Shown here one piece after another: positions 1 to 175 of a DNA stretch of 281 bases. The notes under the pieces are model-generated. The model ran no database searches. It was given only the letters and a program-made list of their open reading frames with translations, and was not told where the DNA came from. The DNA lies in assembly GCF_003334405.1 (NCBI RefSeq), contig NZ_QOWM01000071.1; one strand, given 5' to 3'. The stretch is from Escherichia coli. Its GTDB lineage: Bacteria > Pseudomonadota > Gammaproteobacteria > Enterobacterales > Enterobacteriaceae. Within the stretch, counting starts at the first letter, position 1; every line of letters starts with the position of its first letter. Both the position numbers and the translations under genes were made by a program.

Positions 1-75
1 GGTCGTTAGCTCAGTTGGTAGAGCAGTTGACTTTTAATCAATTGGTCGCAGGTTCGAATCCTGCACGACCCACCA
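1..75 (+). tRNA. lysT: tRNA-Lys (anticodon UUU), 5'-partial (tRNA position 1 lies just outside the window), genomically encoded CCA at 73-75
   Basis: Sequence matches the E. coli tRNA-Lys gene as I recall it. Cloverleaf verified by hand: acceptor 1-6 pairs with 65-70; D-stem 9-12 GCTC with 21-24 GAGC; anticodon stem 26-30 with 38-42; anticodon loop 31-37 CTTTTAA with anticodon TTT at 33-35; T-stem 48-52 GCAGG with 60-64 CCTGC; T-loop TTCGAAT; discriminator A72; CCA 73-75. E. coli has several identical tRNA-Lys genes; lysT is chosen because a 135-bp spacer to a downstream tRNA-Val fits my recollection of the lysT-valT junction. Not verified by search. Confidence 0.96.
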
Positions 76-114
76 ATCGCTAAGGTGGAAGCGGTAGTAA
101 AACGTGAAGGATAA

Positions 115-130
115 CGTTGCATGAGCAACG
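115..130 (+). other. Predicted RNA hairpin in the spacer transcript: 6-bp perfect stem CGTTGC/GCAACG with 4-nt loop ATGA
   Basis: Inverted repeat read directly from the sequence: 115-120 CGTTGC pairs with 125-130 GCAACG, loop 121-124. The only ATG in the spacer (121-123) sits in the loop. Folding in vivo is not established. Confidence 0.5.
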
Positions 131-141
131 GCCCGAAGGGC
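131..141 (+). other. Predicted short GC hairpin: GCCC-GAA-GGGC (4-bp stem, GAA triloop), directly abutting the 115-130 hairpin
   Basis: 131-134 GCCC is complementary to 138-141 GGGC. The stem is short and the loop tight, so stability is uncertain. No U-tract follows, so it is not an intrinsic terminator. Confidence 0.35.
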
Positions 142-157
142 GAGACGAAGTCGAGTC

Positions 158-175
158 ATCCTGCACGACCCACCA
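158..175 (+). repeat. Perfect 18-nt direct repeat of the tRNA-Lys 3' terminus (copy of 58-75: ATCCTGCACGACCCACCA), offset exactly 100 bp
   Basis: Direct comparison: 58-75 and 158-175 are identical. Identity stops at 57/157 (A vs C) and at 76/176 (A vs C). The copy covers the last 2 nt of the T-loop, the T-stem 3' strand, the acceptor 3' strand, the discriminator and CCA. No complementary 5' acceptor or T-stem strand lies nearby, so it is a fragment and not a folded tRNA. Confidence 0.9.

Follow-up and report, generated by a model that had tools for sequence, protein, structure and literature searches.

A second tRNA-Lys 3' end in the lysT-valT spacer of Escherichia coli as the 3' boundary of a tRNA-linked repeat

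The window analysed in this study, a stretch of 281 nucleotides, covers the lysT-spacer-valT segment of Escherichia coli K-12 and is identical to positions 780,555-780,835 of strain MG1655. All features described here lie on its plus strand. The lysT gene for tRNA-Lys(UUU) occupies positions 1-75, with its first G missing (the first window position being nucleotide 2 of the gene) and its encoded CCA included; it was recognized by the Rfam tRNA model with 71.1 bits and is annotated in RefSeq for both K-12 and MFDS1001074. The first 71 nt of valT, which encodes tRNA-Val(UAC), are found at 211-281 according to ARAGORN, Rfam and the annotation. Seven open reading frames of at least 20 aa overlap the window, all of them of 41 aa or less, and a coding role for the spacer was rejected; the sole ATG-initiated frame on the plus strand (121-216, 31 aa) takes its ATG from the ATGA loop of hairpin 1, described below, and is not conserved in the paralogues, other copies carrying GTCA, GCCA or GTTA at this place. 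An internal promoter or terminator was also rejected, as no promoter-like sites were found in the window and the only terminator-like match was hairpin 1 read on the minus strand. A small hairpin, ACTAAC-ATA-GTTAGT, was detected at 175-189 as an inverted repeat and in the fold, its first base being the final A of the second CCA. This hairpin is part of the original lysT trailer: it stands directly 3' of the tRNA CCA in the allele without the repeat, and in Citrobacter werkmanii (L028) its stem is retained while the loop is altered.

The 18-mer ATCCTGCACGACCCACCA is present at 58-75 and again at 158-175, with 18/18 identity and a start-to-start spacing of 100, as the earlier note on this DNA had observed. 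The repeat is exactly 18 nt long, with A at 57 against C at 157 on one side and A at 76 against C at 176 on the other, and none of 200 dinucleotide-preserving shuffles held two matches, even when three mismatches were tolerated. Copy 1 is the genuine tRNA-Lys(UUU) 3' end, made up of the last two T-loop bases, the 3' strand of the T stem, the 3' strand of the acceptor stem, the discriminator A and the CCA. Copy 2 is divided in the predicted fold into the 3' strand of a closing helix (158-167) and a mostly unpaired, tRNA-like 3' tail, ACCCACCA (168-175). The spacing of 100 bp has no special meaning, because the four other copies of the lys operon are spaced by 98, 98, 99 and 156 bp.

Positions 158-175 are almost certainly the 3' boundary of a tRNA-linked repeat (TLR), the RtT family of Rfam (RF00391). 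[quoted passage not shown] The supplementary strain table of the same paper gives five TLRs for the lys operon, with the suffixes T, W, Y, Z and Q, within ten loci totalling 22, and the present element, lying in a window identical to MG1655, is one of those catalogued. The second tRNA-Lys 3' end is therefore nothing new in itself. The 100-bp unit at 76-175 (equivalently 58-157) begins right after the CCA of lysT, within the lysT-valT spacer, ends in the identical 18-mer, and is alignable in its core to the other four lys-operon elements, to Arg TLRs from four genera and to the RtT model; the alignment persists when the 18-mer is masked. Five matches to RF00391 were obtained in the lys operon, one on the 3' side of each tRNA-Lys and all with the same 18-mer end, of which PGAP labels only the terminal copy as RtT sRNA. 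For the window, the match at 7-175 reached 58.8 bits, but the 5' half of the model was there aligned to the real tRNA-Lys, with a 44-nt insertion; the spacer element alone scored 40.6 bits (gathering score 45; E = 4.4e-7), being 5'-truncated to model positions 51-130. The RtT consensus fold, an outer helix with a tRNA-derived 3' strand around internal hairpins, is present in the predicted folds. The proposal of the earlier note that the copy might be a duplication footprint of the tyrT kind thus went in the right direction and turned out stronger than it was put, as the RtT match makes the element homologous to the tyrT repeats and not a mere analogue of them.

The unit starts with a variable 5' part (76-102), in which GGTGG at 84-88 is pairable with CCACC at 170-174 in the minimum free energy (MFE) fold; this part varies among the paralogues, two of which bear a TTAACATC/GATGTTAA hairpin instead. 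Next comes the conserved core (103-175, about 73 nt), for which the predictions suggest three hairpins inside a closing helix, and then the tail already described. The 5' strand of the closing helix, CGTGAAGGAT (103-112), is complementary to 158-167 with one A.G mismatch (107.163), as judged from the folds, the RNAalifold consensus and pair counts on the Lys and Arg alignment; in the lysW-valZ copy a T at the mismatch position gives a G.U pair. Hairpin 1 (115-130, CGTTGC-ATGA-GCAACG) has an invariant stem with 99% of cells paired and a loop that is 8-41% variable per position among 96 unique copies. Hairpin 2 (131-141, GCCC-GAA-GGGC) has 100% of cells paired, with the central loop base 52% variable. 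Hairpin 3 (144-152, GAC-GAA-GTC) displays a compensatory change from A-U to G-C at its middle pair, the covarying columns being 34-35% variable. Whether the unit, the core or the whole precursor was folded, the MFE and centroid structures both contained the closing helix and the hairpins (z-scores -3.1 to -3.8), and RNAalifold recovered the same closing helix. On the Lys and Arg alignment, 86.7% of cells are paired, compared with 28-42% when the partners are shifted by 1-3 columns, and pair 17-78 is U-A in every Lys copy and G-C in every Arg copy. This Lys-Arg covariation amounts to essentially one class-level event, and neither the pair-count nor the pair-type measure of covariation rose above shuffles on the same alignment. 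The Lys closing helix is modest, with 9 of 10 pairs and about -11 kcal/mol, and weakly class-specific. By duplex energy, the 5' strands of the Arg and Tyr elements pair best with their own class (-18.7 vs -9.6 to -11.7 kcal/mol and -19.6 vs -9.4 to -15.0 kcal/mol, respectively). Class-specific complementarity was nevertheless rejected as a rule for the whole family, as it holds for Arg and Tyr, is weak in the short Lys elements, and fails for Pro and terminal Lys.

Comparison of 96 unique Lys TLRs revealed non-consensus bases at 0-7% in stems, 20-50% in loops and 16-73% downstream of the 18-mer. The 18-mer itself showed 3.4% per site (1.8% for the helix-forming bases and 5.3% for the tail of copy 2) against 3-7% for the adjacent stems of the ~73-nt core, and about a third of the Lys TLRs carry at least one substitution in it, with tRNA-Lys itself unchanged. 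The earlier note had taken the 18-mer to be the one part kept intact between decaying flanks. This is wrong: in the alignments of the paralogous and orthologous spacers the 18-mer is not singled out, the whole core is kept, and drift is confined to the loops and the outer flanks of the core. Its related statement that the flanks are diverged stands for the comparison with the tRNA, but not for the upstream flank of copy 2 (about 103-157), which is conserved in the five operon paralogues and across genera. Since the stems are kept, the loops are free and the 18-mer is no better conserved than the stems, the substitution pattern suggests that selection acts on a fold and not on the tRNA-like sequence for its own sake, with the beneficiary of that selection left unspecified. 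The note had also reasoned that a copy absent or degenerate in close relatives, beside an unchanged tRNA-Lys, would speak for chance or a neutral recent duplication. The copy is indeed absent from many strains and degenerate in about a third of the elements, but the TLR is old and structured and is thus neither.

Beyond the lys operon, the same core is terminated by a copy of the 3' end of its upstream neighbour, be it tRNA-Lys, tRNA-Arg(ACG), tRNA-Tyr, tRNA-Pro(CGG) or 5S rRNA, a rule seen in Citrobacter, Enterobacter, Klebsiella, Pluralibacter, Superficieibacter, Acerihabitans and E. albertii. Where a tRNA-Lys variant ends in ...GCACGCCCCACCA (L070, L172) or a tRNA-Tyr variant in ...CCCCCGCCACCA (L064), the TLR carries the matching change. 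Escherichia, Citrobacter and Pluralibacter have orthologous copies in the corresponding spacer, and of the 11 metagenome contigs listed with at least three TLRs, 10 display the Lys-TLR-Val-Lys-TLR layout. Tandem TLR units occur in Klebsiella (L073) and at two metagenome loci (L140, L142), and the repeat length ranges across TLRs from 18 to at least 40 nt, whole terminators being included in some. A genome scan with the core motif gave, among the matches listed, mostly chance hits in high-G+C genomes; informative among them were loci of Enterobacterales together with a single group of loci from other Gammaproteobacteria. A free-standing repeat of ~74 nt, often in tandem and adjacent to terminators, without linkage to tRNA genes, occurs in Alcanivorax, Stutzerimonas, Salinicola, Pseudomonas and Stenotrophomonas, and the three-hairpin cassette appears to be common to it and the TLRs.

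The unit is also polymorphic within E. coli. With 76-175 removed, the window is identical at 181/181 positions to strain AVS0790, which lacks all five TLRs of the lys operon and from which the unit is absent with precision. The TLR-specific 82-mer was detected in 3,585 of 5,426 genomes, and roughly 20-34% of the complete E. coli genomes (1,158-1,841/5,426) lack the exact 100-bp unit, a figure given as a range as genomes that contain TLRs partly match the junction query too. This strain survey, of the sort that the earlier note had suggested for copy-number variation, showed presence and absence of the exact unit. The Tyr TLR occurs in 4,726 of the 5,426 genomes, each of which has it at 1-9 places. 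The many strains without the exact unit, some of them lacking all five, are natural clean alleles that retain all seven tRNA genes, and a strain lacking all 22 TLRs has been built and used as a control (PMC8144298). The lysT TLR is dispensable. Taking both together, its host function, if any, must be weak or conditional.

In our opinion, the locus as a whole is probably best explained by the TLR identity in combination with dynamics at the DNA level and a processing handle at the RNA level, the parts being differently secure. At the DNA level, the 18-bp direct repeats would serve as substrates for unequal exchange or replication slippage, and such events could duplicate units, delete them precisely and keep them matched to their tRNA gene. 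These dynamics, which we consider quite likely, would explain the copy-number variation, the exact 100-bp polymorphism and the way in which TLR ends track lineage-specific tRNA variants; we infer the mechanism of homogenisation, as 18 bp is short for RecA-dependent exchange. The RNA-level role is put forward more tentatively, as a suggestion that could well be wrong. The lysT operon is transcribed as a single transcript, so that the spacer would be co-transcribed with the tRNAs, and its long spacers are cleavable by RNase E. The tRNA-derived strand would supply a terminal helix and an NCCA tail resembling the acceptor/T-arm stack of the upstream tRNA, and the nucleases that finish tRNA-Lys could cut and trim the element to a defined, protected 3' end. 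Published work proposes processing of the same kind for RrB of rrnB, a 173-nt RNA whose 3' end lies 3 nt past the repeat and for which its authors suggest recognition of the repeat by RNase E, and a tyrT TLR is also reported to give a discrete RNA. The processing study of the lysT operon assigned no RNA species to the spacer element and mapped no ends there.

Among the other readings, the one that deserves most attention holds that the TLR is a selfish or neutral repeat without a host RNA role, which persists via duplication and turnover in tRNA arrays, the 18-mer being the junction of each event and the structure either serving the repeat's own propagation or reflecting the recent common origin of its copies. 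We regard this reading as rather unlikely, though worth serious consideration. It agrees with the frequent absence of the unit from operons that are otherwise intact, the existence of a strain lacking all 22 TLRs, the literature's statement that TLRs have no known function, the substitutions in the 18-mer of a third of the copies, the variable copy number and the related free-standing arrays of other Gammaproteobacteria. It is less easily reconciled with orthologues at the same spacer in three genera, with the layout shared by nearly all of the metagenome contigs listed, and with substitutions that fall mostly in loops, stem changes being compensatory. The released spacer RNA might alternatively be a trans-acting regulatory sRNA or a sponge, for which RrA/B/F and 3'ETS-leuZ are precedents. 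The fold is conserved and predicted to be stable, and three members of the family, rrA, rrB and rrF, bind Hfq and CsrA in vitro; on the other side, the 19 tRNA-operon TLRs scored in the same study below 0.01 with InvenireSRNA for CsrB/C-like CsrA binding, the loops vary where a conserved seed would be expected, and there is no known target, making this role improbable.

Two further possibilities had been raised by the earlier note, and neither fared well. In one of them, copy 2 competes for the 5' acceptor and T-stem strands of tRNA-Lys, or acts as a decoy CCA end, and so modulates the maturation of tRNA-Lys and tRNA-Val. Such pairing is chemically possible, the strands being identical, and the poor activity of RNase P on tRNAs with long 3' trailers together with its 3' to 5' processing of this operon would leave room for it. 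All the predicted folds, MFE and centroid alike, nevertheless pair the acceptor and T stems with copy 1 and hold copy 2 by 103-112, so that the tRNA would fold alone; moreover, copy 1 is transcribed 100 nt ahead of copy 2, and the natural alleles lacking the element keep their full set of tRNA genes. Interference of this sort is thus very improbable. The other possibility was a relic att core, left by site-specific integration into the 3' end of lysT. Many integrases cross over between the T-loop and the 3' end of a tRNA gene, the repeat spans just this region, and the polymorphism is exact at the repeats. What decides against it is that merely 82 nt separate the repeats, with no integrated element or conserved ORF between them, that each tRNA-Lys of the array has its copy, and that the same core is tied to the Arg, Tyr and Pro tRNAs as well as to 5S rRNA genes, which have no T-loop, with a repeat length that is not fixed. 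We therefore give an att origin hardly any credence.

A more speculative extension of the TLR reading is that the repeat might be a minihelix mimic of its upstream tRNA, in which the 5' strand and the tRNA-derived 3' strand would rebuild the acceptor/T-stem stack with an NCCA tail, and the three-hairpin cassette would take the place of the T-loop. The cassette could then be mobile, colonising the 3' ends of stable RNAs in Enterobacterales and being excised by RNase P, RNase E and 3' trimming. The Arg copies, whose acceptor/T-stem-like stack is near-perfect with 12 of 14 pairs followed by ACCA, are consistent with this picture, which we nonetheless hold to be a long shot. A mobilome preprint that mentions rtT RNA ascribed its signal to RNA/DNA heteroduplex artefacts rather than to circular DNA. 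Re-identification of a catalogued repeat family adds little by itself, yet TLRs have had no assigned function since 1978, and the question could become easier to test through the natural clean alleles, the fold-directed substitution pattern and the possible membership of the TLR core in a broader repeat family of Gammaproteobacteria untied to tRNA genes. If the minihelix picture were true, the 18-mer would mark the colonisation of stable-RNA gene 3' ends by a widespread structured cassette.

Compared with known systems, the lysT element has all the defining features of the K-12 TLRs and differs from them in nothing essential. It represents the short TLR form of about 73-100 nt, whereas the Tyr, Pro and terminal Lys TLRs have an extra 5' module with a pseudo T-arm (GGTTCGAnTCGAGC). 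With RtT itself (rttR of the tyrT operon), it shares hairpin 1, CCCGAAGGG and the 3' strand with the CCACCA tail, which align at model positions 51-130, and the Rfam consensus likewise has an outer helix in which a 5' strand pairs with the tRNA-derived 3' end; unlike RtT, its tRNA-derived end comes from Lys rather than Tyr and it lacks a conserved Tpr-like ORF. RrA, RrB and RrF, the TLRs between the two terminators of rrnA, rrnB and rrnD, have in common with it the hairpin 1 and 2 core AACGTTGC-GAA-GCAACGGCCCGnAGGG and a 3' end that duplicates the final 18 bp of the upstream stable RNA. They differ in being linked to 5S rRNA, in having one more 5' hairpin and an extended hairpin 3, and in their binding of Hfq and CsrA in vitro, the tRNA-operon TLRs being predicted not to bind CsrA. 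The functional tRNA spacer fragment 3'ETS-leuZ offers a parallel in being excised from a tRNA precursor during processing, but its sequence is unrelated and it carries no repeat of the tRNA 3' end, while the lysT element, for its part, has no known target.

We confirmed that ATCCTGCACGACCCACCA occurs twice in the window, at 58-75 and again at 158-175, as the earlier note had read it, and this pair was the sole direct repeat detected there; with three mismatches tolerated, none of 200 dinucleotide-preserving shuffles gave a two-match outcome. The window, which is identical to 780,555-780,835 of K-12 MG1655, opens with lysT minus its first G (1-75), continues through a spacer of 135 nt (76-210) and ends 71 nt into valT (211-281). 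Mismatches at both borders of the two copies (57 A and 157 C; 76 A and 176 C) limit the identity to exactly 18 nt. The offset of exactly 100 bp has no meaning, as the two 18-mers of each pair along the operon start 100, 98, 98, 99 and 156 bp apart.

An Rfam search showed that the element belongs to the TLR/RtT family, as window positions 7-175 match RF00391, the RtT RNA or tyrT operon repeat, at 58.8 bits, above its gathering score of 45. The spacer without the tRNA matched RtT model positions 51-130 (E = 4.4e-7; 40.6 bits, under the gathering score), so that the element is related to the tyrT repeat and represents a short form; the higher score of the window stems from alignment of the model's tRNA-like 5' half to the real tRNA-Lys. 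Across the whole operon five RtT matches were obtained, one behind each tRNA-Lys and all terminating in the same 18-mer. The earlier note was thus right in part: the tyrT parallel that it drew goes back to homology, whereas its picture of a conserved 18-mer between diverged flanks did not hold, because about 55 nt upstream of the 18-mer (GTGAAGGATAACGTTGC...GCAACGGCCCGAAGGGCGAG...CGAGTC) are also conserved in an alignment of the five operon spacers. With regard to annotation, PGAP labels only the operon's terminal copy (locus L001, 3629-3754) as 'RtT sRNA, processed from tyrT transcript', and the K-12 RefSeq record (L126, whole operon) annotates none of the five, while all five, internal and terminal, exceed the RF00391 gathering score if the upstream tRNA is included; the annotation of the RtT copies of this operon is thus inconsistent.

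The finding is accordingly a rediscovery of an already known element, described under the name 'tRNA-linked repeats (TLRs)' by Stenum et al. 2021 (PMC8144298). According to that paper, TLRs were first sighted at tyrT by Egan and Landy in 1978, Rudd catalogued 22 of them in 1999 at ten K-12 loci with one to five apiece, and they are without known function, since what was claimed early on for the tyrT element was later withdrawn; its supplementary strain table contains the ten TLR loci, including the five TLRs of the lys operon, and a control strain deleted for all 22. The lysT operon is transcribed as a single RNA of ~1,100 nt, its tRNAs are separated by RNase P in the 3'-to-5' direction and its four long spacers are cleavable by RNase E, in a processing study that makes no mention of the repeats and assigns no RNA species to them (PMC4176162).

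Whether the input was the unit (76-175), the core alone (101-175), the complete spacer or lysT together with the spacer, the predicted MFE and centroid folds were the same, with the exception of the small hairpin 3 and an outer 84-88/170-174 pairing. In this predicted fold a closing helix, interrupted by one A.G mismatch, joins 103-106 and 108-112 to 158-162 and 164-167. Within it lie hairpins at 115-130 and 131-141; the algorithm's drawing of the third stem departs from our 144-152 assignment, and the tail (168-175) is unpaired or in part paired to GGUGG at 84-88. Fold z-scores ranged from -3.1 to -3.8. The same closing helix and first two hairpins came out of RNAalifold applied to 18 short-form elements (Lys and Arg), the outer helix is already in the Rfam RtT consensus, and a published covariation analysis names RtT among RNAs with covariation-supported pairs. 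Counted over two classes of related sequences (Lys, Arg), the explicit structure had 86.7% of cells paired, against 28-42% with partners slid one to three columns; pair 17-78 separated the classes, being U-A throughout the Lys copies and G-C throughout the Arg copies, and an A-U to G-C exchange was seen in hairpin 3. The two measures counting pairs or pair types were not above shuffles in the Lys and Arg alignment. In a duplex-energy test the 5' region clearly preferred the 3' strand of its own class for Arg and Tyr; this preference was slight for the short Lys copies and absent for Pro and the terminal Lys copies. The Arg-element helix (GCACCAGGGAGGAT/ATCCTCCCGGATGC, followed by ACCA) forms 12 of 14 pairs and in effect amounts to the tRNA-Arg acceptor stem stacked on the T stem; the lysT element has just three acceptor-equivalent pairs left. 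The 18-mer is therefore one strand of a conserved fold.

Species-representative genomes were scanned with the core motif GCRACGGCCCGNAGGGYG, and among the matches listed, which included many chance matches in high-G+C genomes, true TLRs were found in Citrobacter, Enterobacter, Klebsiella, Pluralibacter, Superficieibacter, Acerihabitans, Tatumella and E. albertii. In these genera the TLR core continues into a copy of the 3' end of whatever gene stands upstream, namely ATCCTGCACGACCCACCA behind tRNA-Lys, AATCCTCCCGGATGCACCA behind tRNA-Arg(ACG), AATCCTTCCCCCACCACCA behind tRNA-Tyr, ATCCTCTATCACCGACCA behind tRNA-Pro(CGG) and AACTGCCAGGCATCAAAT behind 5S rRNA. The length of the direct repeat is variable, and at operon ends it spans the whole terminator, reaching at least 40 nt, the greatest length that was scored. 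Three TLRs carry the same lineage-specific change as the 3' end of their tRNA: Citrobacter sp. FP75 (L070, rc ~884-1079) and a metagenome contig (L172, ~10700-10870) have Lys ...GCACGCCCCACCA, and Enterobacter sp. BIGb0383 (L064, 5279-5539) has Tyr ...CCCCCGCCACCA. Such exact mirroring indicates that both copies evolve in concert in some lineages; despite this, a third of the Lys TLRs have drifted. We also noticed orphan Lys-type TLRs on two metagenome contigs (L159 ~8270-8460 and L208 ~3830-4040), where the upstream tRNA-Lys is missing or a remnant, such as ...ATTCTGCACGACCCACCA preceded by unrelated sequence; apparently these are leftovers of rearrangement.

The constancy of the 18-mer was assessed in metagenome contigs scanned with the 5' strand and start of hairpin 1 (CGTGWAGGATAACGTTGC), so that the 18-mer was not selected on. 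Among the 119 elements with tRNA-Lys upstream, 79 carry a perfect copy of the tRNA 3' end, 18 have one mismatch, 9 have two, 12 have three or more mismatches or indels, and one was too short to score; the 18-mer has thus decayed in a sizeable minority while tRNA-Lys is unchanged. On 96 unique Lys-TLR sequences the non-consensus fraction per site was 3.4% for the whole 18-mer (1.8% for its ten closing-helix bases, 5.3% for its tail ACCCACCA), 3-7% for the other stems and linker, 20-50% for hairpin loops and 16-73% for the region 3' of the 18-mer. As the 18-mer rates like the other stems, it is kept as one strand of a structured module and is not singled out for protection.

Removal of exactly 76-175 from the window gives a sequence matching the lysT-valT junction of E. 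coli AVS0790 (L122, NZ_CP124436.1, 1500-2260) at 181 of 181 positions; that strain has all seven operon tRNA genes, none of the five TLRs, a single terminator, and spacers of 35 (lysT-valT), 51, 48 and 48 nt. The TLR-specific 82-mer (76-157) was found by megablast in 3,585 of 5,426 E. coli genomes and at least 80% of the whole window was covered in 4,268, so that ~1,158 to 1,841 complete genomes (21-34%) are without the unit; ATCC 25922 ('Seattle 1946') is among the empty-site matches. The unit is thus gained or lost exactly at the repeats, and the element is dispensable in nature. Given orthologous copies in Citrobacter werkmanii and Pluralibacter, and a Lys-TLR-Val-Lys-TLR layout shared by 10 of 11 listed metagenome contigs that bear at least three TLRs, TLR presence looks ancestral and the empty allele derived. 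Further turnover is displayed by E. coli CPww7 (L123, 1284-2361), with the order Lys-Lys-Val-Lys-Lys-Lys plus a terminal RtT, by tandem long-plus-short TLR units on two metagenome contigs, and by Klebsiella sp. BIGb0407 (L073, 1315-1700), whose three tandem terminal TLR-plus-terminator units (period 156 nt) are reminiscent of the tyrT 3.14 repeats. The Tyr element occupies one to nine places per genome and is missing from 700 of the 5,426. Separately, a hairpin (ACTAAC-ATA-GTTAGT, 175-189) starts on the final base of the second CCA, lies directly 3' of the tRNA CCA in the TLR-less allele and retains its stem in Citrobacter werkmanii (L028), with a different loop (TCA); it looks like a conserved piece of the original lysT trailer. 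An unannotated stretch of 77 nt in E. coli IH5 (L124, NZ_CP168949.1, 1501-1577), flanked by yieP and xapR, is 100% identical to lysT; it probably represents the lysV end of the valU operon, which that assembly either leaves without annotation or carries in rearranged form.

We propose that the direct repeats undergo unequal exchange or slippage, which would account for the duplication of units, for their precise deletion and for TLRs that follow tRNA variants. At the RNA level, the precursor would present a tRNA-like terminal helix with an NCCA tail, which might allow the tRNA 3'-end machinery to define and protect the end of an excised spacer RNA. This latter step follows the proposal made for RrB, an rrnB element, whose terminal repeat was suggested to be recognized by RNase E because RrB (173 nt) has its mapped 3' end 3 nt beyond that repeat (PMC8144298). 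From the natural and engineered TLR deletions, any host function must be weak or conditional. A neutral or selfish repeat is a rival explanation, as are a trans-acting sRNA and the relic of an att site. The remaining rival is a competitor or decoy for tRNA folding; with lysT and the spacer folded together, the tRNA is predicted to build its acceptor, anticodon and T stems with the copy at 58-75, which speaks against such competition.

Beyond the literature found, this study adds only the natural empty allele and a possible wider repeat family. Among the matches listed, the core-motif scan also hit a structured repeat of ~74 nt in Alcanivorax sp. 24 (L116 1583-1740, L120 4669-4810 and L121 717-875; tandem, with period 74), Stutzerimonas (L104 ~9534-9612), Salinicola (L080, L105), Pseudomonas (L075) and Stenotrophomonas (L019, L114, L115). 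It is often tandem or immediately 5' of a terminator; no tRNA gene adjoins it at these loci (in L080 a tRNA-Pro lies ~5 kb off), and a search of three of them (L105, L118, L121) against Rfam gave no match at E <= 0.01. The 5S-linked TLRs of Enterobacterales have the same hairpin order, consisting of AAAAATTGCC-GGGA-GCAATTTTT, AACGTTGC-nnn-GCGACG, GCCCGnAGGG, a variable GC-rich hairpin and an A-run; the stem sequences of the two differ in a compensatory way, and a CGGGAGC-loop hairpin outside the search motif is common to both. For sequences all selected by a shared 18-nt motif, these likenesses are suggestive of homology beyond that motif, and the TLR core may have its origin in a wider family that the ~74-nt repeat represents.
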